The notes under the pieces are model-generated. The model saw only the letters and a list, made by a program, of their open reading frames with translations, was not told the origin of the DNA and did not search any database. From NCBI GenBank assembly GCA_963819125.1, contig CAWFUQ010000009.1, positions 13,813-77,812 of the forward strand: a DNA stretch of 64,000 nucleotides, given 5' to 3'. Made by a program: the position numbers and the translations under genes. The stretch is from Terriglobia bacterium (GTDB lineage Bacteria; Acidobacteriota; Terriglobia; Bryobacterales; Bryobacteraceae). Shown piece by piece: positions 28,627-60,513 of this stretch (positions within the stretch are counted from its first letter, which is position 1; the number at the start of each line of letters is the position of its first letter).

Positions 28627-29050
28627 GCTGAGCCATAATACACCCGTACTTGTCCCATAAACGAACGATGAACGAGACCCGCTGCTTCCATCGATGCTCG
28701 ACCGGTTCGTGTGCTACGGTCGCGTGCCTCATCCGCGATCACAACAAGTGTCTGGCCGGGCGATGCATCCCGGGCAATCGATCGAATGGGACCCTCCGCG
28801 ACTGTTGGGAAAGCTCACCAGGCTAGCGTGCCCCGACAGAGACCCAGCCTGTTAAGAACCGTTATCGGGACATGCTTGATCGGTCACGACTGAATCAATG
28901 CGCACACGGCCTCGAATGATATCTCTCGATCGCACGGAAAACGCGAGTGTCATCATCGCTGAAAAAATCACGGGCCAATAGCGACGACGGAGTTCTCGCC
29001 GAACTATCCGCATCGTGCGTCGTTCGCTATTAGATAAAGCGCTAACTTCA

Positions 29051-30532: not shown

Positions 30533-30638
30533 GTGTTTTGGTCTTACGCGGAAACCCGCAACCGTGCGGGAAGATCAACCCTATACGCTCGGCGTTCGTC
30601 TGTCAACTTGCAGGGTGTGAGATTTTCTTGAGAAACTT

Positions 30639-35957: not shown

Positions 35958-36065
35958 CGACGCTCCTTACCGAGTAACGGTGATTGAGTGATTATAGACT
36001 AGGCACCCGATCGCGCTACTCACTTCATCAGACCCTCGCGTACAGGTTCCATTACAAGCGGATAG

Positions 36066-36491
36066 TCAGGACCTTTTGTGGCCGCAATCGGGGCAAAACT
36101 TGACGCCACTTGGATACGGAGATCCGCATTGCGGACAAGCAATCCGTTGCTGGAGCGGCTTTCCACATTCCCCACAGAACATCGGCCCTTGTGACTCCGC
36201 GCCACAGGCGCCACAAATCGAGGGCGCCGCGCGATGGGCAGGTGACACTTCGCTCCTGAAATCGCTGGCGCCCGTCAGGGGTGGCGGTGAACCTGCGCTC
36301 GTGACCGTGCCGCTCCCGGTTTCCGAACGATCCTGCCTGGTCAATAACCAGCCCGCGAACACCAGAATCACGACGATGATCACGATACCCAGGATCCAGT
36401 CTTGAGCAGAGTCAGCAGTGTTGGCCACTTTAGTGATGAAGGGAATCACCATCACAAGAGCCAGAATGATCCCGAGGATTAATTTTTTCAT
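36066..36491 (-). CDS. membrane protein with C-terminal double zinc ribbon
   Basis: Internal start MKKLILGIILALVMVIPF. Two TM helices are followed by CGACGAESQGPMFCGECGKPL...CPQCGSPYPSGVKFCPDCG. Confidence 0.65.
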   Translation of the reverse strand: MKKLILGIILALVMVIPFITKVANTADSAQDWILGIVIIVVILVFAGWLLTRQDRSETGSGTVTSAGSPPPLTGASDFRSEVSPAHRAAPSICGACGAESQGPMFCGECGKPLQQRIACPQCGSPYPSGVKFCPDCGHKRS

Positions 36492-36511
36492 GCCGCCACC
36501 TCGTCTATGAT

Positions 36512-36874
36512 TTACACGATCGTCCCGCACTCGGGACAAAACCTGGTTCCCTCTTGAAGTTGTGCACGGCAATGGGAGCACGTATTTTGGGGCTGGAATG
36601 GCTTGCCGCATGCGGGGCAAAACTTGGCGCCCGTCGATCGCGTGCCGCAACCTGAACACACGGAAAGAGCCCCGCCGTTCGCGGGAGGCGCGCCGGGCTG
36701 CGGAGCCCTCGGGCGGTCGAATCGAGTCAACCACCAGCCGACCAGGAGCGCGATGGCTACGAGACCGAGGCCGATTGCCCAGTCGCCAGCCGAATCGGCT
36801 TTGATCGCGATGCCGGCGATGAATACTACCAGCCCCACGATCCCGAGGATCTGTCCCGAAGTCCAGCCTTTCAT
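36512..36874 (-). CDS. membrane protein with C-terminal double zinc ribbon (paralog)
   Basis: Two TM helices are followed by CSGCGTRSTGAKFCPACGKPF...CSHCRAQLQEGTRFCPECG. The architecture matches 36066..36491. Confidence 0.65.
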   Translation of the reverse strand: MKGWTSGQILGIVGLVVFIAGIAIKADSAGDWAIGLGLVAIALLVGWWLTRFDRPRAPQPGAPPANGGALSVCSGCGTRSTGAKFCPACGKPFQPQNTCSHCRAQLQEGTRFCPECGTIV

Positions 36875-36959
36875 TTAGACCAATCCTCAACCACGCGCGA
36901 GCCTAAACTTCGGGCTCCGCAGTTGCGGCGGAATCGGGCTCGACCGCTCACCGCATGTT

Positions 36960-38219
36960 TCATTTCGCGGCAGGGATTTCCTTCATGTCCTCGCAGGCTT
37001 TTCTCTCTCCACCTGCACACGCCTTGCGATAGAGTTCCAAAGCACGAGCGTAATCCCGCACCACGCCCTTGGCGTCCCGATAACGGGCCGCAGCAGCAGC
37101 GCACCCTTCCGCGCTTCCCGCGTCGCATGCCTGGACGAACATCGCCGTCGCGTAGCTCTGACTGTCCTTGACGCTCTTGCCGTTCACCCCGAACAGCGAC
37201 ATCGTCCTGGCCCGATCGACCAGCTCGTCCACCTTTTTCACGGCTTCACAACTTGCGGCGCGGCCGGCCTCACACGCCTTTCGATGGAGCTGCATCGCCT
37301 TCACCGGGTCTGGTGCCGTCCCGCGCCCTTCCGCATTCATGACCGCGGCCTTGCCACACGCTTCCACATCGCCGGCATCGCAATTCCGTTCGTAGAACAG
37401 GCGATCGAATACATCTCTACCCTTCTCAGCGTCGGTTTGGGCTCTCCCTGGCTGGTCTTTCAGCAATTTCGTGGGATCGAAATCGCGATGTTCGAAGTCG
37501 TAATTTGATTTGTCCTCGCGTGCCTTCTCGGCGGCTTTCCGCTGCTGATTTTTCATGACCGTCCGCACGGCGACGATCGACAACACCAGAGCCACGACTA
37601 CGCCGGCAATGACTAGCCACACAGTTCCCGAGGACTGCGCACGTCCCGGCGCGCCGGCCGTCATTGCCAGCAAAGGCTTCCCGCATTTTGGACAGAACTT
37701 ACCTCCTTGTCCGGGCGCTCCGCAAGCTGCGCAGAATGACGGTGCTTGGACCACGGCGGCGGCCTCCACGGGAGTCTCCATGGCAAAGCGCGGCGTTTGG
37801 TCCACGACGACGGGCGGACTCGCTTGGTGCTGAAATATTTCCCGGGCGGGCGAAAAGTAGATCAACCCCAGGGTCAATCCGTTCAGCAGCGTCAAGCAGG
37901 TTTCGCAGAGGTCGGTCCAGCCGGTGGTGACGAATGGTCCCAGCAACAGGGACAAGAGCTGGACCACGATGGTGGTGACCAGATAAAAAACGGGCGCCCC
38001 ACGCCAGACCACGAAAAGACAAATGTTCGAGGCCAGATAAGCGAGAGCGAACCCGATCGCCAACACCGTGGCGCCCGGGACGATGAGATCTTTGTTCGCA
38101 GAGATGCTCTGCAGCGCGAAAGGAAGTGACGAGCTCGTCAGGTACGAGGCGAGCCCCATCGCCAGTCCCACGGGAATCTGCAGCAGAATCAGAAGTCGAA
38201 GCAGGCGTTTCGCAGGCAT
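36960..38219 (-). CDS. polytopic membrane protein with zinc ribbon, TM and Sel1-like C-terminal repeats
   Basis: Start at MPAKRLL. A 4-TM N-domain is followed by FCAACGAPGQGGKFCPKCGKPL, a TM helix and Cys-containing Sel1-like repeats (ACEAGRAASCE, ACDAGSAEGCAAAAARY, ACAGGERKACEDM). Confidence 0.7.
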   Translation of the reverse strand: MPAKRLLRLLILLQIPVGLAMGLASYLTSSSLPFALQSISANKDLIVPGATVLAIGFALAYLASNICLFVVWRGAPVFYLVTTIVVQLLSLLLGPFVTTGWTDLCETCLTLLNGLTLGLIYFSPAREIFQHQASPPVVVDQTPRFAMETPVEAAAVVQAPSFCAACGAPGQGGKFCPKCGKPLLAMTAGAPGRAQSSGTVWLVIAGVVVALVLSIVAVRTVMKNQQRKAAEKAREDKSNYDFEHRDFDPTKLLKDQPGRAQTDAEKGRDVFDRLFYERNCDAGDVEACGKAAVMNAEGRGTAPDPVKAMQLHRKACEAGRAASCEAVKKVDELVDRARTMSLFGVNGKSVKDSQSYATAMFVQACDAGSAEGCAAAAARYRDAKGVVRDYARALELYRKACAGGERKACEDMKEIPAAK

Positions 38220-38230
38220 AGTCGCTTCAC

Positions 38231-38780
38231 TCACAGAAAAGATTTGCCGCACTGCGTGCAAAATTTCGTTCCATCATTGGCGGTGCCGCAGGCTGGGCAG
38301 AACAGCACCCGTCTTGCCGCGACGTGTGGGCGCGGCGGTGCGGGTGTTGCGGGGGCTGGTTTCAGGTTCAGGCCGTCATACTGCTCCTTGAGCGGCGAGC
38401 TATAGATCATCATGAAGATGACTCCCGTCAGCACAACATTCGCCGAATGAAAAAAAATCCATCGAGCCGCTTCTGACCAGTGGCCCATGGACAATCGACA
38501 CGAGAATCGAAATCAAGTTGACGCCCGCGTACAGCGGCCGCGCGACATTCGAAAAGGCGCACAGACCGATACCCGCGCCGACCAGACCGATGAACAAGAT
38601 CAGGAAGGCGAGAAGGTCGACCCTGGATCCGAACCGAGCGGATAGCGGAGAGACGTCAGCCAGCGACGCCGCAAATTCTCCAAACAATCTGGGAGCGGAT
38701 AAGCTGATCGAGACGCGCTGCCCGATCCAGAGCGCCGCCTGAAGCGCCACCAGCATTCGAAGAATGTTTTTCGTTGGCAT
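38231..38780 (-). CDS. paralog of the N-domain plus zinc ribbon of 36960..38219, frame broken at an A8/T8 run
   Basis: ORFs 38400..38780 and 38231..38494 join into one paralog-like protein if one base is removed from the 8-nt homopolymer at 38460..38467. GPLVRSGSMDFFHSANVVLTGVIFMMIYSSPLKE aligns with GPFVTTGWTDLCETCLTLLNGLTLGLIYFSPARE. Confidence 0.55.
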
Positions 38781-38849
38781 ACCGGTTTCCGTCGCGACTG
38801 AGCTACTATATCGCGATCCAATCCGTAAGACCCCGCGCTGAGCCGTTCA

Positions 38850-39472
38850 TTACAGCCCGGACACGGGTGCTGAGACGATTTGCCACCCGCCTGCCTCCAG
38901 CCACATCCGGGTCACCTTGGCGGCATCGACGAAGCTGGCGCGGGCGAGGACGGGTCGCGGATGAAGAATCCGGTGATCTCTTCCGACAGAGCGTCTCGCG
39001 CCACGCCCTCGATCAGGACGGCATGGTTGGCTTCGATCATGCTGGGCTCGTCGGCGCGATCCCATAGCTCGGCTGCATTTACGAACGCGATGACATTCGA
39101 GCCCGCCTCGATATTCTGCGCCAAGTCCTCGAGCGAGTGTCCGCGCTCGGAATCGGCGGGCGCGTCGGAATTCGCAAGCAGACGGAGCAAATGATCTTGA
39201 GACACTCCCCCAGAAAGCGCGACGTCGGATGCGTCGTCGCACCAGCCGAGGTGCATGCCGCGAGTCACCAGATCGCCCTCCGAAAGTGCCCTGCCTAGGT
39301 AGAGCGCGCCCGCCGCCAGACTGCTGGTGTTCTCGAACCCGAAAGGATTGCTGAGCTGCGGCGTCGATTCCGCGGTCATATCCACGCCTGCCACGGTCAT
39401 GTCGCGGCCCCGGATCACCTCGCGGCGGACCGAAACATCGACTTGAAGCGGAACCTCTCGAAAATTAGACAT
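38850..39472 (-). CDS. papain-fold peptidase-like protein, Cys->Ser variant (paralog of 50680..51390), C-terminal frame break
   Basis: GFENTSSLAAGAL aligns with GFQGTCGLCSCEN, SLEDLAQNIEAGSNVIAFVNAAELW with TLEDLAGNIEQGRGVIIGVNAGVLW, and NHAVLIEGVARD with NHAITVTGVARD. The tail ASFVDAAKVTRMWLEAGGWQIV (like AKFVDAAMMREGWEEVGGSQVV) is in another frame, with the shift near 38935..38950. Confidence 0.6.
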
Positions 39473-39490
39473 AGAACATAACCTCCAATC

Positions 39491-40225
39491 CTAAGCAGGG
39501 CTCCAATTCAAGTTCCGAATCACCTTGCCACATGCGGTTCGCAACGCGCTCAAACTTCCCCGCGCCATGTAGCGGCGATCGGAATCCAGGACGATCTTGC
39601 GGAACGCCTCTTCTTCCGCCGCGGTCAACGGCTGCGCGGAGTCGGAAGCAGCCCTCGTGAGCGCCTCCGCAATCGCCGCGGGACTGCCCATCTGGTCGCG
39701 ATGATTCACGAACAGGTACGCACGCAGCTTGGGAATCGCCCGGCAATGGAGCACCGCGCAATGGGACCCACTGATCCCCAGCGTCTTCCCGATCTCATCC
39801 CATGACGCTTCGGCATGATTCAATTTCTCGAGTACGCAGTGCGATTCCTGGCCAGTCAATTCACCTGCTTCCGCAGCCCTGGAAAGCATGGACCGCAGGA
39901 AATCGGCTGACATCGCCGGCTCCGGCGCCACCTTCTTCGCAACCAGTCCGGGATTGCTTTCTGCAACTGTTTCAAGAGGTGTATCCCGGACCCGCTGCCG
40001 CACCAGCCGTTGAATCGCCCGGTTGATTTCGTTCCGCGCGATCTTCTGTACCCATTGGCTGAAGGGGCAATCGCCGCGAAATGTCGCCGAGCCTCGCCAG
40101 GCGCGAATGGCGACCTGTTGAACGACATCGCTCGCGAGCGCCGGATTGGACAATGCGTACCGGCACGCTCGTTCTACATGGACGGACGCTTCGCGCCATT
40201 GAGTCTCGAACTCTTCGCTGGTCAT
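39491..40225 (-). CDS. ECF-type sigma-70 family factor with ~70-aa C-terminal extension
   Basis: MTSEEFETQW...; region 2 is ASDVVQQVAIRAWRGSATFRGDCPFSQWVQKIARNEINRAIQR; region 4 is LTGQESHCVLEKLNHAEASWDEIGKTLGISGSHCAVLHCRAIPKLRAYL. The ATG overlaps a TGA in the neighbouring frame (GGATGACC). Confidence 0.75.
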   Translation of the reverse strand: MTSEEFETQWREASVHVERACRYALSNPALASDVVQQVAIRAWRGSATFRGDCPFSQWVQKIARNEINRAIQRLVRQRVRDTPLETVAESNPGLVAKKVAPEPAMSADFLRSMLSRAAEAGELTGQESHCVLEKLNHAEASWDEIGKTLGISGSHCAVLHCRAIPKLRAYLFVNHRDQMGSPAAIAEALTRAASDSAQPLTAAEEEAFRKIVLDSDRRYMARGSLSALRTACGKVIRNLNWSPA

Positions 40226-43200
40226 CCGCTTCCAAATACGTCGAGCGCCTTGCTCTCGGCGAGACCGCTTCGTTGGGATAACAACACGAGAAGCCGGTCG
40301 CGCGCGGCGATACTGTCGGCACCCGGCATCTTTGTGTTCGTCAACAAGCAATAGAGCCACGCCTGGCGGACGGCGCCGTCGGCGGGCTGTCCCGAGATCG
40401 CTCCCCACGGATTGCATGGCCGCGACCGTGGCGCGTTCCACAGATAAAATAGCTTTCTCGGGCGGATCCTGCATGACGAGCGGAAGCACTTGCCGCGTCA
40501 AGCCGCCGATGTGAGCAGCGACGAAAGAGAACATGAGGCAACGCATCGGGCACGCTTCGCAGCCAGGCTCCTCTCGTGGAGGCCGGTTGGTGACGGTCGC
40601 CACGAGCTGTTGATGAGCCTGCTCGAACGCATGACGCTGTTCGTCGTTCAACGCAGAGGCGCGCAGCCACCCAATCAGAAACGGACCGAGTGCGCGCGAC
40701 GCGGCTTCGCGCGTCAATCGATTCTCGGGAAGCAGTCCGCTTTCCGGAGTCAGCGCGCGGCGGCTCTCCAGAAAAACACCGAGCCAGTCGTGGACCGCCG
40801 AGGCCGCGGCGCAATACTCGATTCCAAATCCGCCATCGAGACGCAGACCGGACAATGCGCGGAGATCGGCACGCCAGGTATTCCACGCCGCCCACGCGCT
40901 GGCCGCGTCACCGAGCAAGAGATGTTCGCAGAACGCCGTCAGGCTCCTCTTCACGCGATCCCATCCGCGCGCCTCCTCGAGCGGCGTCAGAAAATCGCAA
41001 GGCGAGGCGCACCACTGGCAGCCTGCGTGTTGGCGGAGGTGGGCGCGCTTCTCCGGATCTGCCAGACGCGCCAGGTCGCGAACCTGATGATCGGTCAGCG
41101 CCTCTACGCGCGCTCCTTTCACCGGCAGGATCCGCACTAGAATCGCCGAACCGATTCGCTCATCATGAACGGCGGCCTGCCCGGTCGGCAGCGCGTTGAG
41201 ATGTCGGATCTGCGGCTCGCTCAGATTCATGCAGCTTCCGATCGCGTGCCGGTCCTCGGAGTCCAGGAGCTGATGCGCGATCTTGAGGTAGGAGTTCTTG
41301 AGAATCTCCGGCGCCAGCTTGCTGGGAATCTGGTCAGCGATGACGAAGCCTTCTCCATAAGCGCGCATTTCGGCGAGCATGTTGGTGAACATCGAAACGG
41401 CTTTCCCGCGCGGGTCGCCTGCCTCCGCGGAGACGCCGCCGCGTGGGGCTTCCAGCAGCCGGTGCGCCTCTTCCACTAGCGTCAAATGCTGCAGCCGCTC
41501 GCGCTGGTTTTCCGGCAGGTCGCGCTGTCGCGCTTCCGCGTATTGGCACAACAGGACAAACAACAGCGCCATGACGAAAGATTTTTCGTCGTCATCGCCT
41601 AGGTCCTGCAATTCCACTACCGCCGGCCGGGAAAAAATGGATTCGAGCGGCGTGGATCTCCTGGTGTTGAGCGCCAGGCCTTTGTTGCCGACCATCAGGC
41701 TGCGCAGCCGCGAGCGAAGTGCCGCGCCCATGTTCTGATGAATCTCCTGCCCATATTTTTTCCTGGCCAGCACGACCTCGATTTTGTCATGCAGATCCTG
41801 AAGATTAGGCGTTAGCGCGCTCAAATCGTCGAGCGAGGGACGATCTCCGAGAGAGGCGTTGCCGGAGTCGTACAGGCTCCAGCCACGCTCCGTGTAGATC
41901 TCGAGCAGCGCTTCCTCCAGCACGTACTGCATTCCGGCGAACATCGAAAAGGAGGCGTTAAAGACCGCCTTCAACATATCGATATGCCGTCCGAGAGGAA
42001 CGCCCTGCACCGGCGCCAGCGGATTCAGCCGGAGCGGGAGGGTAACCCCGCCACCAAAACCGAAGACGCCGAGCTTGCCTTTCAATTCTGGGGTCTGCAG
42101 CAGCCGGCGATATTCGCTCTTCGCCGGCTCGAGCACCAGGAACGGCACGCGCAGTTTCTCGAAAGACTCGAGGAGAATCTGCATGCACGTATTCGTCTTT
42201 CCGCTGCCGGGCGTTCCGGTGACGAACACGTGCCGGTTCAGCGATCCCGCGGGAATGGCAACCGGGCTCAGATCGCGGCTGAGTTCGTCCTGGAGGACGC
42301 CGATGGTGATCGAATCGGACTTGGGCGCCGGGACCGAGAGAGCGAACTCGCTGAAATCGCGCATCGGCAGACCGGGGATCTCGCGCTGCGGGGGCGTCAC
42401 CAGTACCGACAGCTCTTCGCAATCGAGACAGGTCGCCAGGGCGTCGAAGGCCGGTCCGAGCGGATGCCCCTGGTCGCCGGAGGCAGGCCGCATTTCCAGA
42501 ATGCGTCCGTATTCAATGCCGTTGCGCACGGACTCATCAGGGGGAGATAGGATACGCAGCGGATCGAGCGCGGAAGCATCGCCGCCGCCGAGACCGCGCA
42601 ATCCGCCGGCGACCGCGTGAACCGCAGCGTCGCTTTCGGCCACCAGGTACACTGCTGTTTGCCAGCATCCGCTGCCGCGGGCCCGGATCAGACGGTCCGT
42701 GTACTGTTGGATCATCTGCTCGCAGGCTTCGGCATGGGCGTCCAGCAAATCGACCCCGCCCGATTCGGACCAGTTCGTCCCGTCCTGGATCTGGCTTGCT
42801 CTGCCGGTGCTGTCCCGGCGTCCCGCCAAGTTCGCGGCAGTCATGGTTGTATTGAGCGCCGCGACGAATGGCATGGCGTTCATCCCTAGAGGAAGGGCGA
42901 CCAGGCTGGAGAAAGCCGCCACACTCGAAAGACAGAGCGGGAGATCCTGCAGCCACCGGTTCTTCTTCTGTGTTTCCTCAGTCTCGGTACGCGACTCGGA
43001 TTTCGATCCACCCTGCACCCGCTGCACCGTGCGCCGCACGTAGGCGTGCATCTCGCTCTTGAGGCGCCGGCAGATGTCGATGGCATCATCGATCGCCTCC
43101 GCTTCCAGGGGCCGGGCGACCAACATCAGCGCATAAGGCTGATCGCCGACGGCGGCCACCAGCCGGTCCAGACTCTGGAAGCTCGATGAGGGATCCTTCG

Positions 43201-43753
43201 ATCGCCGGGAGGGTATCCCGGTCATCACGCGCGTCGCTGGGGCATCGCGCAGGAAGGAAGCCAAATCCGGGAGGTCCTGCTGAGTGAGGCCGGCGAGCGG
43301 CCCGAATTCGAGCCCGTTCAAGTGTGAGCGGTAGGCGCTCTCCTGCATGGAGAGATAATCTTCCGTCGATCGCGCTCCGGCGCCGATGATGCGCCGGCCG
43401 CCCACGTACAGACGATGGCGGCCGCGTGAGCCATGAAGAATCACCACGAGTGAGTGCCCGGGATCGGAGCATGCCGTCAACACTTGCGGCATGGCGCGAG
43501 CGAAAATTCCGGGCTCCTGCGGGCGGCCCAGGCCCGTCACTTCGCGCAGCAGCGGACGCGCAATGTCGCCAGTTCTCGGCTGGATGTTCCAGTCAGCAGC
43601 CCGAAAGTGCGAGAGATACCTTCGTTCCAGAACCGACACCAATGCCTGCGGCAGACCTTCGGTGAATTGCACCTCGGCGGCCAGCGAGGGTCGCGCGGGC
43701 TCAGCGGCCGCGGATACCGCGACAGGCTGCGCCGGACGGGGATCAATCGGCAT
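40222..43753 (-). CDS. large HerA/FtsK-superfamily (DUF87-like) ATPase with ~480-aa unknown N-domain and Cys-cluster C-domain; apparent frame break near 40385..40395
   Basis: Walker A VFVTGTPGSGKTN, Walker B HLTLVEEAHRLLE, and GEGFVIADQIPSKL. The C-terminus has CQWCASPC and CEACPMRC. The last ~55 codons (GQPADGAVRQAWLYCLLTNTKMPGADSIAARDRLLVLLSQRSGLAESKALDVFGSG*) are in a different frame with better third-position GC. Confidence 0.8.
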
Positions 43754-44900
43754 CGACGTTTCCTCGTTCCCATGGCGGAATCAGCGGGGCTGGAGATGGC
43801 GAAGATTCCAGGTCAGGTTGCGCGAAGGTGGACGCCTCAATCGCGGGCATGGAATCGAGGAGCATTCCCGAGGGATGCTCGCCCAACTCGCCCCACCAAG
43901 TCGCTCCCGCGGCGACATCTTCGGCCGCTGCGCCGCTCCGCCATACCGGGGCCAGCGCGGCTGCGATTCTTTCGGCGAACGGCCAAACGGAACCCAGCCC
44001 GCCCACTAACAACAGTTCCGGCGAGTCACTTCCGATGGCTCGCAGCGCTCCTCGGATCGCGTCTGGAAGCTGCTGCGAGAACGAAACGAATTCGGGCCAA
44101 GCCGTGCATTCCCGATAAGAGAGTGACAGCGGAGCGTATAAGCGCTCCTCGAAGATCTCGCGCCACTCAACCGGTTGCTCAGCGCTCGATTGAGAAAGGC
44201 GCGCGGCGTAGCGGGCGGCCGCCTCGCGAAGGGGTCGTTCGAAGCCGGTTCCGGGTTCTTCGTTCAGCCGCTTGCGCACCAGGTCGAGCAGCCGCCGGTT
44301 CCAAGCGGACTCGCCGGCTTCCTCGATCGCCTGGGGGGCGCTGACAGCCGCGATCGACGGGAAGCCACGGCTGTCCCATTCAAGCCAGAAGGCAGTCACG
44401 AGAGTGGACGTCTCTCCCACAGCGATTGCGACGACGGCTTTCTGTTTGGCTGGTTCGAGCGACCGCGATGCGAACCAGCGGCACAGCAGCGCATGCGTGG
44501 CCGGAAGAACCGTGATCTCATCGAACCCCGCGGCGCGGGCCAAAGCGTCGACCGTATGCGCCTCCGTTCGAAAATTCGATCCCTGCAAAGCGATCGCGAG
44601 ACGGTATCCGTTTTTTCGCACGGGCGCGAGCCGGCCGAGATAGGCGGATAGACGGCGATACGCTCCCTCCCAAAAAAGACGGGCACCGGGCTCCTCGACC
44701 CATGCGCCGTTTCCGGAGGCGGTCCACAGAGGGGCATGTCCAGCCGCGCGGCTGCCCCAATCTCCCGTGCCCGCCACGGCGTTCGGAATTTGTGCGCGGA
44801 CGCCGTCGCCGACCAAAGCAACGTGCGCACCTTCATCACCCTCCTCGCGTAAAGCGATCACTGTGACGGAAGGCTGGTAATCCACGCCGAAGGTATTCAT
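43743..44900 (-). CDS. degenerate actin/Hsp70-fold (ASKHA-like) protein
   Basis: MNTFGVDYQPSVTVIAL, VVAIAVGETSTLVTAF and ELLLVGGLGSVWPFAERI sit where the phosphate-1, phosphate-2 and adenosine motifs would be. The stop overlaps the ATPase start by 11 nt. The fold assignment is tentative. Confidence 0.5.
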   Translation of the reverse strand: MNTFGVDYQPSVTVIALREEGDEGAHVALVGDGVRAQIPNAVAGTGDWGSRAAGHAPLWTASGNGAWVEEPGARLFWEGAYRRLSAYLGRLAPVRKNGYRLAIALQGSNFRTEAHTVDALARAAGFDEITVLPATHALLCRWFASRSLEPAKQKAVVAIAVGETSTLVTAFWLEWDSRGFPSIAAVSAPQAIEEAGESAWNRRLLDLVRKRLNEEPGTGFERPLREAAARYAARLSQSSAEQPVEWREIFEERLYAPLSLSYRECTAWPEFVSFSQQLPDAIRGALRAIGSDSPELLLVGGLGSVWPFAERIAAALAPVWRSGAAAEDVAAGATWWGELGEHPSGMLLDSMPAIEASTFAQPDLESSPSPAPLIPPWERGNVDAD

Positions 44901-44966
44901 CCGGCGAACCCTTGTTTCCATCCCCGCGGCGTCTCCGTGACGAAAGGGGCGGCCAGTTTGGCTGCT

Positions 44967-46569
44967 TCATCTGCCAGTTCTCGAAAGGCGGCTCTGCGCG
45001 TCCCGAAGCCGCCGAAGAGCGGTTTCATCGGGCATCGGACAATCCGCGGGCTGCAGCGAATAAAGCCGATCGAAACCCTCCAGGAGGCGCGGGCCGCGGG
45101 ACTGCATCGCCGTGATCAGGTTTTCGATCAGCCGCTGGATCTCCGCGCGAACGGTGGCCAGCCATTGCGGCGGACGGCCCAGCTTCTCGCCGACGAATGC
45201 AGGAATGGCCGCCACCACCGCATTGACGCCGCCTGCTTCGATTTTTTCAAGAAACCGGATCGGAAGAGCCGGCGGACAAGTCTGGCTCAATAAATACTCG
45301 GTCCACTCCGGATTCAAAGGCGCTTCGCCGCTTCGTCGCAACGTTTCACCGGCATGTTGAATCATCCGCCGCGCGGCGGCATCGGCGACGGCGGCGATTT
45401 CGCGATTCAATTCCTCCGCGTGGATTCCGCCTGAAGCCACTGCCACATTCGTCAGTCGTGATGAAATGCTTGCGCCGCAGGCTTTCGCGCCAACGGAGAA
45501 ATCCTCCAGGAATTTTTCGATAGCCTTGGACAAGGATTCCGCGAGTTGGCGCTTTCCCTCCGCACGGCGATCCACTTCCGCTGCCTCAGCTTCTTGCCGC
45601 TCGAAATCAGCCACCGCTTGGGCAGATGGGTTCTTCGAGCCGCGACGCACAATCCCGCAGCGCTGCCGCAGCGCGCCATAGCCGCGTCCGCATCACGCGT
45701 GGATGAAATCGCAGAATCCACTTGCACCATGAATCCCAGAAGATCCGCGCCGCCAAAGGTGTTCTGTCCGGATTTGCACATCGCACGCCCGCCACCGGCA
45801 GGATGGTGGGAGGCGCTTGTTCCGGAAAGCCCATATCCGGAGACGAAATGGCACACTTTATTGATCAACTGCGGAGCGCTTTTAGACAGGAACTGTTCCC
45901 ACTCCGCGGGACTGTCGGTACGAAGAAATCCATTCAGGATGAAGATCACCGAAGCCGGTCCGGATTCCTGGACGTGGCTCGCGAGGAATTCCATCTCCAC
46001 CTGCGAAAGGAGCTGGCGCGACGTCAGCACCCACGCCAACACATCCGAGTACGCGGCCGACCGGCGCGTGCGTTCGTCCATCTCGGGAGTATCGTTGTAT
46101 CCGGGCGAATCCACCCAGCACGCGTTGGCTGGAATCACGGAATCCTTGAGAACGATTTCGGCACGTTCGATAGCCGCCACCTCGCTGCGCCGCTCTCCAC
46201 GTTCCGAAAGCAATGTGATTTCGGCGCGAATGGCTTCAGTGGAGCAGGGGATCGCGCGCCTTGCTCCCGCTTCGATGACAACGGCGCCATCCTCATCGCC
46301 ACTCAGCAAGCAACAGATCGCGCCGGTATCGGGCACATCGTCGACCGGTAGGATGTCGCGCCCGACCACCGCGTTCATCATGGTCGATTTGCCGGCCTTG
46401 AACACGCCCCCGAAATTCACGGTCACCTGTTCTTCCCCGATCACACGTGTGAGCTTCCAAGCCGCGTCGCGATATCCGGAGCGTCGGCCTTCGTCATCGC
46501 AGCGAGTTCCTCGATCCGGGCATTCAGATCCTGCACAGCTTCTTTCGAAACACCAGCACAAAAAATCAT
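44967..46569 (-). pseudogene. dynamin-like GTPase 2, reading frame broken at least three times
   Basis: ATG at 46569 gives MIFCAGVSKEAVQDLNARIEELAAMTKADAPDIA. The GTPase domain lies in a second frame (GGVFKAGKSTMMNAVVG, WVDSPGYND). The helical C-terminal 227 aa lie in a third frame (ORF 44967..45650). Confidence 0.6.
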
Positions 46570-46577
46570 GCGGCTCT

Positions 46578-48591
46578 TTACGCTGTCTGCTGCAAACTCA
46601 CATTGAGCACCGTAAGCTCCTGCCGCAGCGCCCCGACCCGGCGCAACGATTGATCGAGCGAGGAAAGCATCCGCGCTTTTTCCGACTGGCTTCGCCGGTT
46701 GTTTTCGGCGATGGTGCGCAGATTTCTCTCTTTCCCTCGATGATGGTCAGCACCGCGGCGCTGATGTCCGTAGCCAGCTTGTCAATGTACGCCCCCGTTT
46801 CCGATTCGATCGGTGGAGCATAATTTTTCACCCACTTCATCGAGCCGAGGCAGGACGTCGTCGAGCGCTTTCTTCTTGACTCTCTGGGTGAGCCCGATGG
46901 TCCCGCCGACTACGTTCGCCACCATCCCTGCGCCGATGCCCCACAGCACCAGGTAGGGCAGTCCGAACCATCCAAGAGCGGCTACCGCTGCCAGGCGCGC
47001 GGCGATATTGAAGCTCAATCCGCGAAATCCGGTGGATAGCCCGGTCAGTGTCGTGAAATCCTGAAAGAGAACCAGTCCAACCACGGTCGACCACGCCCGT
47101 TCCTGATCGCTGATCATCTTATTGTCCGCTCCCGGTTCGAGTTTCCAGCCGGTCACCTGGAATTGGACATCGTCGAACTCGCGCTCGATCGCCGCCACCT
47201 CGTCCTGAACTTCCCGCAGCAGCGCTTCGAGGCCGGGCTCCAGAATTTTCTGCGCCGTGTCACCTTCCGCTGGCGGTTCCGTTGCACCAGGAGAGAACCT
47301 GCTCGCTGATCTGGCGTTCGCAGAACGAGTATGCCTCGGCCAACATTTCCTTCTGATGCGCGAGCGCCAGAGCCGTATCGGACGGCAGCTTTTCTGCCAT
47401 GAGCCGATCGGGAAGGGTTTGTTTCAACTGCACGGTTACCATTCCGAACCCGGCACGGATGTCGCGCAGGCTCTGGTCGCGGTACCGCCGGAAGATCTCC
47501 GGTAGCCGTTCATAACGCTTGCGAATGTCAGCCAGTTGCGGTTGAATCGCTTCGAACGCGACCCGCAATTGTTCGGTGTCGGCCTGCAGCGCGGCTTGCC
47601 GCTGCCGGACCTGCTGCTCGATGGTGACCGCCGAGTTGTCCGCCGCTTTCAGAAAACGATCGATATGAACGCGCTGCCGGTCGTGGACCAGGAACTCGCC
47701 GAGTTTCGCTTCAAAGCCGGCCAGACCCGATTGCTCCATCTGCCTCGCGTCAGCCAGCAACTTGCCCTGCTCCGCTTGCCTGGCGTCTACGAAGTAAATG
47801 TCGCGGCTCTTGAAATCCTGCGGAGCGTCGGCGCTGCCGCCAAAGTCCGTCACCAGACGACGCCACACAAAACCCTTGAAGCGATCATCCACCGCACGGC
47901 CATCCTGCAAATTCACCACCGTGAAAACGCGTGTTCCCGAGTTGGTGAGCGTCTCGTGCACGAACTTCCGCTCGTCCTCGCCGGCCAGGACGTCGCTGCG
48001 GTACACGACGATCGCCACGTCGCACTTGCCGATCGCCTGCCGCGTCACTTCGGTGCGCTCGGGGATATCGTCGGTGCCGGGCGAGTCGATGATCGTGACG
48101 CCGGATTGGCATAGCTCAGCCGGAAAGCCCATCTCGAATTCACGAATCTTGCGGAAGAAATCGCGCGTTTCGCTCTCGTTCTCGCGTACCGTGCCCTCGC
48201 GCCGGTACTTTTCTAGCGACCAGTCTTCTGAGTTTCCATCAAAACCCCATGCGCGAACAGTGGGCCGCTCGGCGTAATGAATGGAGGTCAGCGTAGCGGT
48301 GCACGGCAGCTCGCCAACCGGCATGGGGCCCTGGCCGAACCCGAGCTCGGGAACCGGCCTTGTGGAGCCACCAAGAAGCGCATTCAGAAGGGTCGATTTA
48401 CCGTTCTTAAAGCGGCCCGTGACAATGATCTGAAAAGTATCCGACGCCAGCCGTTCGGCGGTTTGCTCCAGCCGGGCGGCGGTCTCTTTCATATCGAGAC
48501 TCGACGCCAGCGTTGTCAGATCGAGAATTGTTTTGCGAGCCTGGGTTTTCGATCGTCCAAATTCCTGTTCCAGTAATTGCTTCAGAACCAT
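46578..48591 (-). pseudogene. dynamin-like GTPase 1 (BDLP-like, ~670 aa) split over four frames
   Basis: G1 is GRFKNGKSTLLNALLG and G3 is IIDSPGTDD. ORF 47260..48591 continues sensibly into 46782..47198 (hydrophobic paddle LAAVAALGWFGLPYLVLWGIGAGMVANVVGG). It then continues into 46598..46840 and into a fourth frame ending ...LRQELTVLNVSLQQTA* at 46578. Confidence 0.7.
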
Positions 48592-48610
48592 CGATGCGCT
48601 CCATCCTACC

Positions 48611-50116
48611 CTATAGCCTTTGCCTGTACAACAACAACTGAGCTCGATCCAACTCCGCGGCCGAATCTCCGTCGGGAACCTTCATCGCCTGTGCGTAGGC
48701 GGCATCCAATGTGGTCTCGATCGCGCTTAATTCCGCAGCCAGGCGATCGCGGTATTCGGCGATCGCGCCCTGGATCGCGGTCCTCGATTCGGGGATCGCT
48801 TGGCGCGTCATCGCATGAATGGCTTGCCGCGCCGCCTGAGCGGACTGCTCGAAGGATTGGCCGCGCCGCGCGATACCCAGCGCCGCAAGCAAGCTGGAAA
48901 CGGCGACCGTCGCGACCAGACCGGTGCTGAGCGCCGCGGCTAAACCGAACAGCGCCACGACACCGGTCACTCTATCCTGCCACTCCGGTCCTGAGGTGGT
49001 GTGCTCCAGCGCGGGAGCGTGCGGATCCACCGGAATTCTCAGCGACACCGCAGCCGGCCGCGCGGGATTTCCCGCCATCGCGTGAACGAAGTCCCAATCG
49101 ATTCGATCCAGCAGCGTCTGCGTTTCGAGGATGATCCCGGCGACCCGCTGATCGAGTTCCACCTCCAGGCGCAGCCGCCATGAGGTCATCCCTTCTTCGA
49201 TGCACTTTTCCAGCAGCGACTGAAACTTGCGGCTGTAGACATGAGTGTCCTTCCACAGTCCGGACTGTCCCTCCCGCACCTTTTCGATCCGCCGTAGCAG
49301 ATCCTGTTCGAGCGCCAGCAGCGAGGCGGCTACCTGGGCCGAAAGACTCGCGGCGTCGCCATCCATGCGGCGCGCCACGCGGCTTCGAACTTCAGCGACT
49401 TCAACTCGCGCGCGGCGCAGGCGGCCGGCATCGCCGTCGCGGGCCGGATGTGTTGCCGGCGTGAATCCTTCCGCGAAGTCCAGCAGCCGGGACACTTGCG
49501 CGCGATCCAGCAATTCGACATCGGGATCGGCCAGAGGCCGCCGCAGCAGCGCCGCCAGTTCCTCCGCGTCACGGCGGCAGCGGTCGCGCAGAAATTCGTT
49601 GGGTTCGGAAGCGCTCCACAAGTAGCACTGATACGCGAGGAGATCCTGCCGCTGCCACTCGCGTTTTGGATCGGGAACCACCAGCCGCCAGATGGCGCGT
49701 TCCATCTGGTCCAGATCCTCCGGCGATTTGAGGCGTTCCGCGTGCGTGAATACGATCGCGAAGGATTCGAGAGGCCGCGTCAGGAACTGCTCCGCGATAG
49801 CCGTCGCCGCGGCTGCATCGAGTGCGCGGCCGCACTCGAAAACGGCGACCAGCTTCGTCGCGAACCACGCGCTAAACGGCGGCGCGGCGATCTCCCCGAT
49901 GGGGGCTTCCGTGATTTCCGCGGGATCGGCCGTTTGCTGCATCCAGTTCCGCAGCGGTGTAGCGTCCACGCCAGCGCCGTGCGCGAGCAGGATCTCCCGC
50001 CGCGTCCTGCGAGACAGAATCGCCGCCGCAAGATCCTCGACGGATTTCCAGCCGCGGCGCGCCGCCAGGTCGCGTATGCCCTGGACAACCTCTTCGTTAA
50101 TGGATGCTGCCGTCAT
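48611..50116 (-). CDS. dynamin-like paralog with degenerate P-loop and hydrophobic paddle
   Basis: 501 aa. LLAHGAGVDATPLRNWM sits where G1 would be, with no GK[ST]. There is a helical stalk, a paddle-like VTGVVALFGLAAALSTGLVATVAVSSLLAALGIA and a C-terminal helix. The layout matches the two downstream DLPs. Confidence 0.55.
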   Translation of the reverse strand: MTAASINEEVVQGIRDLAARRGWKSVEDLAAAILSRRTRREILLAHGAGVDATPLRNWMQQTADPAEITEAPIGEIAAPPFSAWFATKLVAVFECGRALDAAAATAIAEQFLTRPLESFAIVFTHAERLKSPEDLDQMERAIWRLVVPDPKREWQRQDLLAYQCYLWSASEPNEFLRDRCRRDAEELAALLRRPLADPDVELLDRAQVSRLLDFAEGFTPATHPARDGDAGRLRRARVEVAEVRSRVARRMDGDAASLSAQVAASLLALEQDLLRRIEKVREGQSGLWKDTHVYSRKFQSLLEKCIEEGMTSWRLRLEVELDQRVAGIILETQTLLDRIDWDFVHAMAGNPARPAAVSLRIPVDPHAPALEHTTSGPEWQDRVTGVVALFGLAAALSTGLVATVAVSSLLAALGIARRGQSFEQSAQAARQAIHAMTRQAIPESRTAIQGAIAEYRDRLAAELSAIETTLDAAYAQAMKVPDGDSAAELDRAQLLLYRQRL

Positions 50117-50122
50117 GGCGCA

Positions 50123-50647
50123 CTACTTCTCCAGCCATTCGAAGAAATCGGGCACGATGGCGCGATACTGCGGCTGAAGCGGCTCCGGAAGAAGTTCCGT
50201 CAACATCGACGCAAGGCTCCGGCGCTCGATCGCATCCCCTGGTTCGCCTGCGAAAAAGCGCGGCGTCAGAGTCTCCAGTTTCTCTTCCATAGTCTTCAAC
50301 GATTGACGCAGCTCGTCTCTGGTGATCGCGACGCGCGGCAACGTGACCGCCTCGAATTTCGCGCCCGATGGAAAGGTAATCGACTTCGTCAATGCGTAGA
50401 CCATCAGCCGCCCGCCGTAGGCTGCCACTACCCACCAGCGGTCTGGGGCGCTTTGCTGCATGGGCTCCTGCGGCCGCCGCAGCGCCGCGGCTGCGAAGTA
50501 GGCGTAGGAAGGCTCGCCCCATTTCATCGTCGGTAGCGGCAGTGAGATGGCATGCTCGGTGGGAATTTCCGAGCGGATCAGGAAGTGGGTCTTCTGAAGC
50601 TCGCGCAGTTCCGCGTAACTCATGAGATGTTTTTGGATGGTTGTCAT
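50123..50647 (-). CDS. small hypothetical protein (174 aa)
   Basis: I prefer the start at MTTIQKHL because GGAGAG lies 6 nt upstream. The ORF track opens at 50752, which overlaps the peptidase gene. There is a 6-nt gap to the next gene and no known domain. Confidence 0.5.
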   Translation of the reverse strand: MTTIQKHLMSYAELRELQKTHFLIRSEIPTEHAISLPLPTMKWGEPSYAYFAAAALRRPQEPMQQSAPDRWWVVAAYGGRLMVYALTKSITFPSGAKFEAVTLPRVAITRDELRQSLKTMEEKLETLTPRFFAGEPGDAIERRSLASMLTELLPEPLQPQYRAIVPDFFEWLEK

Positions 50648-50679
50648 ATCTGCTCTCTCCGCTTGGTCCATATGGTTTG

Positions 50680-51390
50680 TTAATTCGGCAAAGCCTTGGA
50701 AAAGGGGCGGCTTTCCGCGGTCACAACCTGCGATCCGCCGACTTCTTCCCAACCCTCACGCATCATGGCAGCGTCCACGAATTTTGCGGCTTCGCCTGTT
50801 CCGCTGTCATTCACGAAAAAGCCCTGAATATCGCCGGTCGCGGGATCGCGGGCTACTCCTGTCACCGTGATTGCATGATTCGATACGTTGCCGCTGTCGG
50901 CGTTCGCGTCATTCCAAAGCACGCCGGCATTGACCCCGATGATCACTCCCCGGCCCTGCTCGATGTTGCCGGCCAGATCCTCCAGCGTTCCGCCATGAGA
51001 CGCGCTGGAGGGGACACCGAGACGCGTGAGGATGTCGGCACGCCCTTCCGCCGTGGTGCCTCCGTTCTTGGCCGGGTCCGGATCGTCGCATGAGCACAGA
51101 CCGCGCGTACCTGCGAAAAATACCAGGTCCGATTCCGTTACTTCCAGTCCGAACGACCGCAGAACATTTTCGCATGAGCACAGTCCACAGGTTCCCTGAA
51201 ATCCGCTGAAACTGTCGCCTTGCCGGTGCGTAAATCGTTTGTCCCCTTCCGGGTCGCCGATCACCACGGTCTCACGGCCGTCCGGAAGCACGTCCACGTG
51301 GGACGGCACCTCACCAGTGCCGAAATCGCTGAAATTGGGCACATCAGCAGGTACGTCCCGGATGAAATCGTCTTTGAATCTGTCTTCCAT
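50680..51390 (-). CDS. papain-fold cysteine peptidase-like protein
   Basis: A Cys motif (GFQGTCGLCSCENVLRSFG), a His motif (NHAITVTGVARD) and a downstream D/N (GFFVNDSG) suggest a C-H-D/N triad. No signal peptide. I cannot assign the family by eye. Confidence 0.65.
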   Translation of the reverse strand: MEDRFKDDFIRDVPADVPNFSDFGTGEVPSHVDVLPDGRETVVIGDPEGDKRFTHRQGDSFSGFQGTCGLCSCENVLRSFGLEVTESDLVFFAGTRGLCSCDDPDPAKNGGTTAEGRADILTRLGVPSSASHGGTLEDLAGNIEQGRGVIIGVNAGVLWNDANADSGNVSNHAITVTGVARDPATGDIQGFFVNDSGTGEAAKFVDAAMMREGWEEVGGSQVVTAESRPFSKALPN

Positions 51391-51452
51391 CGCGTCCTCT
51401 CTTTACGTCTCCTACCGCCTTCAATCCTTCAGACCCCCGATCAGGGCCGCCC

Positions 51453-52328
51453 TTACAGCTTGTTGGAACATTTCTCCGTCAATGCTCCTAAGAGATAGGC
51501 ACTTGTCCAGATCGCCGCTGACATCAGGGGGAAGAAGAGGATGACGCCGATTCCGCTCAACGCGGCGATCGCGGTTATCGAAATGACGGCGGCCATCATG
51601 CACCACAGCAACACCAGAAACTTTGCGAATCCAAAGAAATGACGGAAAAGCAGGGCGACACACGCCGGAAGGTTAAAGAAGCTGCCGGCCTTTCCCGTTT
51701 GCGAGAACCGGACGACGGCAGCGCTGAATACCGGCAACGCCAGCGAAATGTACCCGAGAACAATTACCGGTCGCCACCACGATAGTACGAGCTGCGCGTA
51801 CAGCATTTCCCATAAGGGAGGACTCGCCTGGCCCTGCAGATGGTGCCACAGCCATAGTGAGATTTGGAGAGCGAGGGTCCACAGTCCGAACGAAGCAACC
51901 CACCAGTACAGCATCACAGGCAGCATTATATAGAGCCAGAAGAACGCGACGACGATCGCGCCATCCGTCAGAAAGCGGCCAAGATCGTTTGGCTGCGGCA
52001 AAGATTCCGGCATGCGACGGCTCTTTCTCCGGACCGCGTCGATCGCCCATCCGGCGCTGAGAAACATTCCCAGTGGAATCGGCAAAGGAAGCCACCACAG
52101 GAACGTCATCCACAGACTCCGGATCCATTCGCGTCGATAGAACGGCCAACTGACGGAATTTCCAGCGTACGGCGTCCGCCAGATCATGCTGAGCGGCACC
52201 CAGTCCTGAAGCGCGTCGGTTTTCGCCAGGTCGGATAAGCCCACCCTGCCCTCGAACAGGAACGCCCTTATTTGCGTGTCCGAGTACGGGCCGTACGATT
52301 GGCCTGTCCTATGGATGAAGTAATTCAC
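51453..52328 (-). CDS. GYF_2 (DUF4339)-like domain fused to a polytopic membrane domain
   Basis: A GTG start gives VNYFIHRTGQSYGPYSDTQIRAFLFEGRVGLSDLAKTDALQDWVPLSMIW, followed by about 6 TM helices. The ORF track opens further upstream at 52544. Confidence 0.65.
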   Translation of the reverse strand: MNYFIHRTGQSYGPYSDTQIRAFLFEGRVGLSDLAKTDALQDWVPLSMIWRTPYAGNSVSWPFYRREWIRSLWMTFLWWLPLPIPLGMFLSAGWAIDAVRRKSRRMPESLPQPNDLGRFLTDGAIVVAFFWLYIMLPVMLYWWVASFGLWTLALQISLWLWHHLQGQASPPLWEMLYAQLVLSWWRPVIVLGYISLALPVFSAAVVRFSQTGKAGSFFNLPACVALLFRHFFGFAKFLVLLWCMMAAVISITAIAALSGIGVILFFPLMSAAIWTSAYLLGALTEKCSNKL

Positions 52329-60399: not shown

Positions 60400-60513
60400 A
60401 GAAAAACTGAAGCGTTTTTTGAAGACTTCGCGCCCGCTCGCCGCCACAATGTGTGGGTGAAGCGCACCCGTATCACCCAAACCACATCCCGAACTGTGCG
60501 GATCGTTGTTCCG

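Follow-up and report, generated by a model that had tools for sequence, protein, structure and literature searches.

The stretch of DNA analyzed here, hereafter the window, comprises 64,000 nucleotides (nt) of contig CAWFUQ010000009.1 (positions 13,813 to 77,812 of the forward strand) from a Terriglobia bacterium, whose genome assembly contains 5.86 Mb in 15 contigs. Between positions 38850 and 52328 it carries ten co-directional open reading frames (ORFs), for which an earlier note, made from the letters alone, proposed an undescribed system of peptidases, dynamin-like proteins (DLPs), an Hsp70-fold protein, a HerA-like ATPase and a sigma factor. All ten ORFs lie on the minus strand, as stated in that note, and every junction spacing that it gave was reproduced, including the four-nucleotide overlap of the HerA and sigma genes, which appears once a 1-base indel at 40403 is removed (Table 1). 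Nine of the ten genes constitute a conserved module, from which the most upstream one, encoding a GYF-domain membrane protein, is excluded. The conserved core order is composed, read downstream, of a papain-fold peptidase, a small protein named p176, a DLP without P-loop (p500), two further dynamin-like GTPases (DLP1 and DLP2), an Hsp70-like protein (p380) and a HerA-like ATPase of about 1150 amino acids (aa). The domain assignments of the first reading were all supported by Pfam, hhalign, Foldseek and HerA model matches.

Table 1. Genes, junctions, putative promoters and frameshifts of the locus, in window positions
Feature	Position	Strand	Remarks
GYF_2 + DUF4013 membrane protein	51453..52328	-	Pfam; neighbour, upstream of P1
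Putative promoter P1 (GTAAG-N16-GGTCT)	51431..51456	-	41 nt upstream of peptidase ATG, in the gap after the GYF gene
Junction GYF gene/peptidase	GYF stop 51453, peptidase ATG 51390	-	62-nt gap
Papain-fold (C39-like) cysteine peptidase, 236 aa	50680..51390	-	PF13529; Gln/Cys/His/Asp active site
Junction peptidase/p176	Peptidase stop 50680, p176 start 50671 or 50647	-	Gap of 8 or 32 nt by start codon
p176, small soluble protein, 174 aa (range 174-182 aa)	50123..50671	-	Always directly after peptidase gene
Junction p176/p500		-	6-nt gap
p500, DLP lacking P-loop half of GTPase domain, ~500 aa	48611..50116	-	hhalign to DLP1
Junction p500/DLP1		-	19-nt gap
DLP1, full-length BDLP/mitofusin-type GTPase, ~670 aa	46578..48591	-	Dynamin_N 5.8e-21; PF21808
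DLP1 frameshifts	47272, ~46805, ~46730	-	1 base each
Junction DLP1/DLP2	DLP1 stop 46578-46580, ATG 46569	-	8-nt gap
DLP2, second dynamin-like GTPase, ~535-570 aa	44967..46569	-	Dynamin_N 1.7e-17
DLP2 frameshifts	46440-46560 and 45512-45650	-	Ortholog comparison
Junction DLP2/p380	DLP2 stop 44967, p380 start 44921 or 44900	-	45- or 66-nt gap
p380, predicted Hsp70 nucleotide-binding fold, no substrate-binding domain, ~390 aa	43743..44900	-	Predicted structure and Foldseek
Junction p380/HerA		-	11-nt overlap
HerA/FtsK-type ATPase, ~1176 aa	40222..43753	-	Large N-domain with conserved hydrophobic segment; C-domain with two CxxCxxxC
HerA frameshift	40403	-	1-base indel
Junction HerA/sigma		-	ATGA shared, once the indel at 40403 is removed
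ECF-type sigma (sigma2 + sigma4), conserved ~60-aa C-terminal extension	39491..40225	-	Sigma70_r2 2.7e-09, 37.1 bits
Junction sigma/peptidase-2		-	18-nt gap
Peptidase-2, degenerate peptidase paralog	38850..39472	-	Catalytic Cys changed to Ser
Peptidase-2 frameshift	near 38945	-	Ortholog comparison
Putative promoter P2	38828..38853	-	Overlaps peptidase-2 stop; 48 nt upstream of next gene
Membrane protein, zinc ribbon + Sel1 repeats, frameshifted	36960..38780	-	Lineage-specific add-on, common to L002
Double-zinc-ribbon (DZR) protein	36066..36890	-	Lineage-specific add-on
Putative promoter P3	36030..36055	-	73 nt upstream of RDD/DZR gene
RDD-family membrane protein with double zinc ribbons	35178..35957	-	Lineage-specific add-on

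Conservation and modular architecture

Synteny was assessed in all fetched loci with sufficient flank and a HerA of 44% identity or more. The full order was found on one strand in 17 such loci (L002, L003 and fifteen from a genome scan), and two more, one of a Planctomycetaceae and one of a further Streptomyces, bring the full-order loci outside this genome to 19. According to the record titles, the carriers belong to seven phyla: Pseudomonadota, Actinomycetota, Cyanobacteriota, Abditibacteriota, Acidobacteriota, Chloroflexota and Planctomycetota; two more phyla have reduced or partial forms. A gene order repeated in so many loci goes far beyond chance, and the unit seen in the earlier note holds across genomes. 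A fortuitous juxtaposition of unrelated genes fits the GYF gene, the only chance neighbour; for the other genes it has a negligible probability, being refuted by the synteny of the same seven or eight genes and by a shared promoter that co-varies with sigma (see below). The GYF/DUF4013 gene, which the note had counted as a member, lies outside the module, since no homolog of it occurs in any other related locus and the promoter is placed downstream of it, between the GYF and peptidase genes.

Some loci are incomplete. Those of Chthonomonadaceae end at contig edges, that of Rivularia (L005) misses DLP2, and that of an uncultured actinomycete (L022) misses both peptidase and p176. The module is accessory and horizontally spread, because p380 is found in none of 60 relatives, 36 species of the same genus included, and is thus present in only one of the 61 genomes, this one. 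Searches of 72,556 plasmids and 50,697 phages gave no p380 homolog.

Clustered at 50% identity, the p176 family gives 347 clusters among 1.84 billion representatives, and every one of them consists of stand-alone proteins. Four random members were looked up and the peptidase gene lies directly upstream in all four; the two genes often overlap, and peptidase and p176 form an obligate pair. What follows the pair varies: L092 displays the canonical set (sigma, peptidase, p176, p500) up to the contig end, in L094 a DLP comes directly after p176, in L093 the pair is followed by an Hsp70-like protein and HerA with no dynamin, and in L091 (L091:9190-18230) by an FHA protein, a HerA-like protein of 1068 aa, a 798-aa protein and DO-GTPase2. 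Genes encoding vWA, PP2C, kinase and DA1-like proteins lie opposite in L091. Relatives of the HerA-like protein with a length of 1100-1200 aa number in the hundreds, and distant paralogs (35% identity or less) occur without any partner genes. A paralogous HerA of 1127 aa in an acidobacterium (L030:7522-13321) comes after an 804-aa protein of odd architecture, composed of a zinc ribbon, a ribosomal L7/L12 C-terminal domain and an Hsp70 nucleotide-binding domain (NBD) that is related to p380 (hhalign 83.7%, E 8e-06). This arrangement suggests that the Hsp70-NBD/HerA pair is the older core. By these comparisons, the system consists of a peptidase-p176 pair and an Hsp70-NBD/HerA pair combined with an exchangeable GTPase module, and the L091 variant links the family to the GTPase-centric conflict systems of multicellular bacteria.

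Compared with intact orthologs, the module of this assembly contains seven frameshifts in 13.5 kb (three in DLP1, two in DLP2, one in HerA and one in peptidase-2), and the next gene downstream, encoding the zinc-ribbon/Sel1 protein, has two more, one of them at a T8 run. By one of these shifts HerA and sigma are merged into a reading frame of 1420 aa, in which Pfam gives both Sigma70_r2 and HerA-type hits. The earlier note was right that several members look frameshifted in this copy, but as a property of the assembly; a biological decay is not indicated, and most likely the shifts are assembly errors. This conclusion is based on independent short-read contigs of a freshwater sediment metagenome (run X1; 12 pieces, all at least 99% alike to the window), which correct all three sites that they cover. 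In fact, their single-base indels relative to the window fall at 40403, 47272 and 46730, exactly on the covered frameshifts, which lie in short homopolymers (CCCC, GG and TTT runs). The change at 40403 restores a HerA of 1176 aa whose stop overlaps the sigma start, with that at 47272 the DLP1 frame reaches 46782, and that at 46730 coincides with an independently mapped switch of the DLP1 frame; X1 leaves the third DLP1 shift, near 46805, unexplained. Alternatively, the seven frameshifts would be real and the module of this genome would be a decaying pseudogene cluster encoding nothing functional. The accumulation of shifts here and in the next gene, while long ORFs elsewhere in the window are unbroken, speaks for it, but the metagenomic corrections and an amino-acid identity to L002 that stays at 53-78% across the breaks make it improbable. 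Indels are far denser in the module (window 38400-48600) than in the unbroken ORFs of 1360, 1033, 849, 806 and 756 aa; one possibility is a lower coverage, if the island is carried by only part of the population.

Proteins encoded by the module

The peptidase matches Peptidase_C39_2 (PF13529) at 21.8 bits, under the Pfam cut-off of 24; the model matches both peptidase copies of the window, each below the cut-off, and precomputed Pfam hits are recorded for the homologs of L003 and L091. The active-site Gln, Cys, His and Asp are retained in all 16 orthologs. No signal peptide was seen in the peptidase by eye and no conserved hydrophobic segment was found. The second copy, peptidase-2, had been described as a Ser variant. 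The Ser change is present, but the copy is not a mere variant: it is a catalytically dead pseudo-enzyme, because the catalytic Cys is Ser here and Gln/Cys/His have become Val/Ala/Cys in the ortholog of L002, the closest relative.

A confident structure is predicted for p176 by AlphaFold 2 (AF2; pLDDT 91.9), for which Foldseek gave no match in the PDB at E of 0.001 or less. No solved fold was matched in a wide fold search with VIA either, where the best Z was only 4.0 and the N-terminal half weakly resembled PepSY/cystatin-like folds (Z 3.1-4.0, a lead only). The best score in the Atlas features was 0.88, with uninformative matches, and no family in Pfam, PADLOC or NCBIfam matched p176.

The three dynamin-like proteins are not equivalent. 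DLP1 aligns over its full length with the BDLP of Nostoc (PDB 2J68, positions 39-685, E 2e-59) and over part of it with IniA (6J72, 1.1e-10). It has a hydrophobic segment at 530-557, and PF21808, the 2J68 match and this segment together give it the helical neck/trunk and membrane paddle of such proteins. DLP2 matches 2J68 at E 2.7e-21, only up to residue 421. The G1 motif (GxxxxGKS) is present in 17 of 17 DLP1 and 15 of 15 DLP2 sequences, and in the G3 region of the DLP1/DLP2 alignments DSPG is kept in alignment A5 and D-x-PG is invariant in alignment A6. The alignment of p500 with the DLP1 profile (hhalign 97.7%, E 1.4e-12) starts at the G3 motif, and none of 18 p500 orthologs has a Walker A or P-loop. 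Hence, judged by its sequence, p500 is a truncated dynamin relative missing the first half of the GTPase domain, and not a GTPase; it also has a conserved hydrophobic segment (387-409). Such segments are conserved, among the module proteins, only in p500, DLP1, DLP2 and HerA. DLP2 and p380 are read as one 963-aa ORF in Actinoplanes subglobosus (L021:7083-9974), and in an 812-aa metagenomic protein (P0121), the sole longer p380-containing protein found, Dynamin_N is joined to a p380-like part; these joins may be true fusions hinting at direct contact, or frameshift artefacts.

The structure of p380 is also predicted with confidence (AF2 pLDDT 84.3). Foldseek returned at least 500 matches, and the 50 listed are all NBDs of the Hsp70 family (DnaK/Ssz1/BiP; best E 1.6e-14, TM 0.62), so that p380 is predicted to have the two-lobed ASKHA fold. 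Its phosphate-1 motif is degenerate (GIDxQ, not DxGTT), no Pfam HSP70 match was obtained for it, and the C-terminus consists of a disordered linker followed by a conserved PPWxR tail, without a substrate-binding domain (SBD). This motif (window 43743-43800) and DVPxxLDxLPDGRE in the N-terminal arm of the peptidase (window 51240-51390) are conserved short motifs outside the folded domains and are probably docking peptides.

Walker A is present in 12 of 12 HerA sequences and the Walker B EEAHRLL is invariant. This copy matches HerA chains of the PDB at 2.4e-09 to 2.8e-05 and scores 20.8 against PF01935 (cut-off 23.2), a family recorded in the precomputed annotation of most homologs; for its N- and C-domains Pfam gave no family at E of 1 or less. 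Eight Cys are conserved in the C-domain (window 40222-41100), as two CxxCxxxC and two further Cys; in sigma (window 39491-39800), Cys/His/Cys/Cys are conserved in at least 90% of 12 sequences, with Cys/His in sigma4 (CAVAHCRA) and one Cys in the extension. These residues suggest metal or Fe-S binding or redox sensing, and no model matched either region. A ZAS-type anti-sigma role of the HerA C-domain was considered and is unsupported, the spacing being H-x2-C-x2-C versus H-x3-C-x2-C, with no model match.

A sigma factor with a candidate promoter

The sigma factor is of the extracytoplasmic function (ECF) type. Its Sigma70_r4 score is 14, below the cut-off; the L002 ortholog covers 165 of 165 positions of TIGR02937 at 41.6 bits, versus a cut-off of 42.9, and no curated ECF subfamily of NCBIfam was matched above its cut-off. 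The earlier note had the module ending in a dedicated sigma factor. It is indeed dedicated to the module and has a likely cognate promoter, but the terminal position is not the rule: in 13 loci sigma precedes the peptidase gene, and only in three (the window, L002 and L014) does it come behind HerA, with overlapping stop and start codons.

By reading the regions upstream of the peptidase genes we found the motif GTAA[TGA]-N15-18-GGTC[TC], which has 18 hits in the 817 kb of locus sequence scanned, 11 of them on the coding strand within 150 nt upstream of a peptidase gene. When at least nine of ten positions are required, 15 of 20 loci have the motif in the 200 nt that precede the peptidase gene, the background being 0.005 per 200 nt; of the 15 loci with sigma 14 have it, as does one of the five without (the upstream regions of L089 and L090 were read separately). 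In the whole genome of 5.86 Mb a stricter form has nine hits, of which three (P1 to P3) lie in this 15-kb cluster, all intergenic and on the coding strand (Poisson P about 8e-8); an equivalent of P2 is found at 14919 in L002. GTAAT-N15-18-GGTCT is thus the likely cognate promoter of the sigma of the module and, because the motif co-varies with sigma and a third of its genomic hits fall in the cluster, sigma is very likely a private activator of the operon. Since two promoter copies precede the downstream zinc-ribbon membrane genes, the transcription unit would extend to about 35178, and in this genome sigma would very likely also activate these three zinc-ribbon/Sel1/RDD membrane genes.

In the sigma-first loci, the gene immediately after sigma encodes a peptidase-fold protein. 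In the window and in L002, where sigma moved behind HerA, it is the dead peptidase copy that follows it; L014, also with sigma last, has no second copy. Nine of 12 sigma sequences have LGG at the junction of sigma4 and extension; the two that adjoin a dead peptidase have lost it. The adjacent peptidase-fold protein is a candidate anti-sigma. A complex of sigma and peptidase was predicted with a median ipSAE of 0.55 (runs 0.55, 0.74 and 0.51; best of three controls 0.00), contact agreement of at least 77% and partner pLDDT of at least 83. The pass mark is reached by 58 of 80 solved complexes and two of 110 mismatches, and passes at 0.60 or less were given by only seven of those 80 complexes and by both passing mismatches, so that this is a weak pass.

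Possible function and relation to known systems

We read the locus as a horizontally acquired operon with its own transcription switch, encoding a membrane-associated NTPase machine, to which we give a probability of about 0.5. Most likely the system works at the cell membrane, and we favour an inducible membrane-guarding or membrane-remodelling role. In such a scheme, sigma would drive peptidase, p176, p500, DLP1, DLP2, p380 and HerA from the promoter before the peptidase gene, and in this genome the same transcript would carry sigma and the dead peptidase copy; as sigma lies inside the operon here, the circuit would be self-reinforcing. The three dynamin-like proteins and HerA would be attached to the inner side of the membrane by their hydrophobic segments, a location suggested by the restriction of such segments to these four proteins and by the homology of DLP1 to BDLP. 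Membrane damage or invasion (phage, pore-formers, envelope stress) might be the signal. Sigma might be held or processed by the adjacent peptidase-fold protein, possibly by cutting at the Gly-Gly before the C-terminal extension, as the adjacency of the two genes and the loss of LGG beside the dead copy suggest; the freed sigma would then boost the operon, GTP-driven dynamins would tether or reseal the membrane, and the ATP-driven HerA/Hsp70-like pair would pull or pump a substrate at the membrane.

Several observations weigh against this scheme. The signal, the substrate of HerA and the target of the peptidase are all things that we infer. No anti-sigma domain was recognised in the module by Pfam or NCBIfam, and the predicted complex of sigma and peptidase, a weak pass, is one for which no interface is reported. 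The Nocardia locus L019 has sigma and lacks the motif, and in the sigma-first loci no motif was found in front of sigma itself, so that positive feedback is not general. Variants lack dynamins (peptidase-p176-FHA-HerA-DO-GTPase in L091, peptidase-p176-Hsp70-HerA in L093), and a peptidase-less one in Nitrospira (L088) consists only of DLP1, p380 and HerA; dynamin membrane remodelling is therefore not essential to the wider family. Dynamin_N was found near 15 of 195 carriers of the HerA central domain in the 20-39% identity band and near none of six in the 40-59% band, in a census whose query picks up mostly paralogs, whose other bands had fewer than five tried, and which gave 0 Dynamin_N at random places. 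The p176 family has about nine carriers among 36,145 genus representatives, with Dynamin_N near fewer than three of the nine overall and near none of three in the 40-59% band. Such low numbers of dynamin neighbours are expected because the family is modular, with an exchangeable GTPase module.

Tandem dynamins are known from defence. The anti-phage system Eleos (formerly called Dynamins) is composed of LeoA/LeoBC, and enterotoxigenic Escherichia coli (ETEC) has the LeoABC dynamin trio. As in our locus, these are adjacent dynamin genes, one without a complete GTPase, in sporadic accessory loci. They are, however, self-contained systems of two or three genes, whereas here the dynamins belong to a seven- or eight-gene operon with five or six further conserved genes (sigma, peptidase, p176, Hsp70-like, HerA). 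The similarity to Leo proteins is weak (PADLOC hits of DLP1 to LeoA/LeoBC at 1.5e-10 and 2.3e-08, of DLP2 to LeoA at 2.7e-04 and of p500 to LeoBC at 3.5e-05), the closest solved relative being Nostoc BDLP. Bacillus subtilis DynA and mycobacterial IniA/IniC, the latter from the stress-induced iniBAC operon, are membrane-protecting bacterial dynamins. The match of DLP1 to 2J68, paired dynamins, a hydrophobic paddle-like segment and inducible expression (predicted here) are in common with these and with Nostoc BDLP; on the other hand, their operons are not known to include a HerA, Hsp70-like protein, papain-fold peptidase or dedicated sigma.

The ATPase has counterparts in Sir2-HerA, DUF4297-HerA and mad8 of the MADS system, which share a HerA-clade domain with Walker A and B (chains 8xau, 8wiv, 8j4u; PADLOC mad8 6e-17). 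Ours differs in being twice as long (about 1150 aa), with an N-domain that bears a hydrophobic segment and a Cys-rich C-domain, and its partner is an Hsp70-NBD-like protein, there being no Sir2, nuclease or methyltransferase in the module. The mad1-mad8 set of MADS, which includes a methyltransferase, was not found: only the HerA part gives a hit (mad8), and the module proteins match no other mad model.

These likenesses bear on the main rival, a dedicated anti-phage system of the abortive-infection type, in which the NTPases would sense infection above a threshold, the peptidase would be a toxic effector and p176 its inhibitor or immunity partner. We consider it unlikely, although it accounts for a good part of the data: the distribution is patchy and crosses phyla, the parts are common to defence systems (with the weak LeoA/LeoBC and mad8 hits and the match to solved defence HerA), modules are swapped, even next to a DO-GTPase of a family placed in conflict systems (PMC7159879), the peptidase-p176 pair is obligate and often overlapping, and the N-half of p176 recalls cystatin-like folds, as a lead only. 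A strict anti-phage role is nevertheless weakened by the flanks. The earlier note saw a fit with accessory or defence cargo, but the surroundings add nothing to the latter, as only two or three of 105 flanking proteins (18 loci) hit PADLOC, the leading hits being kinases that flank L090. In addition, no homolog occurs on the plasmids and phages searched, several loci lie among metabolic genes, and a sigma with positive feedback is unusual for abortive infection.

As a further alternative, the operon might encode a translocation or export apparatus, where a membrane shaped by the dynamins is the site at which a HerA/FtsK-type pump transports DNA or protein across or into it, for example in vesicle release or in cell-to-cell transfer in filamentous bacteria. 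The HerA domain is in fact related to DNA translocases (CedD 3.9e-13; TrwB/FtsK-type among Atlas neighbours; VirB4 weakly), HerA has its hydrophobic segment, and mycelial or filamentous growth is common among the carriers (Streptomyces, Nocardia, Actinoplanes, Rivularia, Leptolyngbya, Anaerolineales). This reading seems to us quite unlikely, since the loci share no gene for a channel, a secretin, a pilin or a substrate-like protein, signal peptides and multi-pass membrane domains are absent from all components, and no plasmid copies were found.

Two other groups of systems resemble parts of the locus. The DO-GTPase/GAP1 systems (Kaur et al. 2020, PMC7159879) share with it one or two paralogous TRAFAC GTPases, an HSP70 lacking the SBD, peptidases, membrane proximity and a preference for multicellular bacteria, and one peptidase-p176-HerA variant lies beside a DO-GTPase2. 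Conversely, our locus lacks GAP1, FNIII and tubulin, and those systems lack a sigma factor; dynamin is not mentioned in that paper and HerA appears only in a reference. With ECF41/42 and CorE-type ECF44, our sigma has in common conserved Cys/His and a conserved C-terminal extension behind an apparent sigma2 + sigma4 core; in both cases no classical anti-sigma gene is recognised, and the promoter (putative here) has two blocks, with GTC in its -10 element. Our sigma differs in that its extension has no known domain and its partner gene encodes a papain-fold peptidase.

None of the closest known systems contains this gene set. PADLOC 2.0 gave only weak part-wise hits and NCBIfam none that names the set; for five of the module proteins NCBIfam has no models, and no published description of the set was found in full-text literature searches. 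Within these searches, the statement of the earlier note that it knew of no described system combining these parts is supported. The system is a novel combination of known kinds of parts, and there is a real chance that it constitutes a new class. A bolder version, which we regard as doubtful, would make it a new class of membrane machine, where an Hsp70 without SBD, a giant HerA pump dipping into the membrane and three dynamins form a single sensor and actuator, whose output is a C39-type peptidase cutting the system's own sigma at a Gly-Gly hinge; if true, this would be a new way of sigma activation and would connect dynamins with transcription for the first time.

Membrane repair and phage defence are processes in which bacterial dynamins and HerA ATPases are each known to occur. 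In this operon they are joined by an Hsp70-like protein, a peptidase and a private sigma with an identifiable promoter, and fusion of this promoter to a reporter would show what switches such machines on. It also contains p176, a family without known fold, and it shows that the peptidase-p176 and Hsp70-like/HerA pairs are modules reused in a broader set of systems that has no name. Several Streptomyces and Microbispora sp. NBC_01189 (CP108581, positions 342037-365450), actinomycetes that are cultured and amenable to genetics, have intact copies, which makes direct tests possible.

As regards the immediate neighbourhood, the three zinc-ribbon/Sel1/RDD genes (35178-38780) are syntenic with L002 only; they were considered as core parts and rejected, not being conserved in the other full loci. 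Zinc-ribbon proteins also adjoin paralogous HerA systems (L030-L032, L066 and L078). Three long ORFs lie opposite the module on the plus strand, at 45546-46823, 49448-50536 and 43454-44344 (425, 362 and 296 aa); their translations are rich in Arg, Pro and Ala and we take them to be shadow frames of G+C-rich DNA, not genes. The flanking recombinase relics mentioned in the earlier note were not confirmed: PF00589 (integrase) has no match in the window, other recombinase families not having been scanned, and no mobility genes were detected by Pfam among the scanned ORFs. The surroundings (window 20083-32543 and 58129-62871) are rich in signalling and surface proteins, including a 1360-aa Kelch/InlB-B-repeat protein, a Ser/Thr kinase-TPR protein, two Trans_reg_C-TPR regulators, a Laminin_G_3 protein and an ASH/DUF1573 Ig-like protein.

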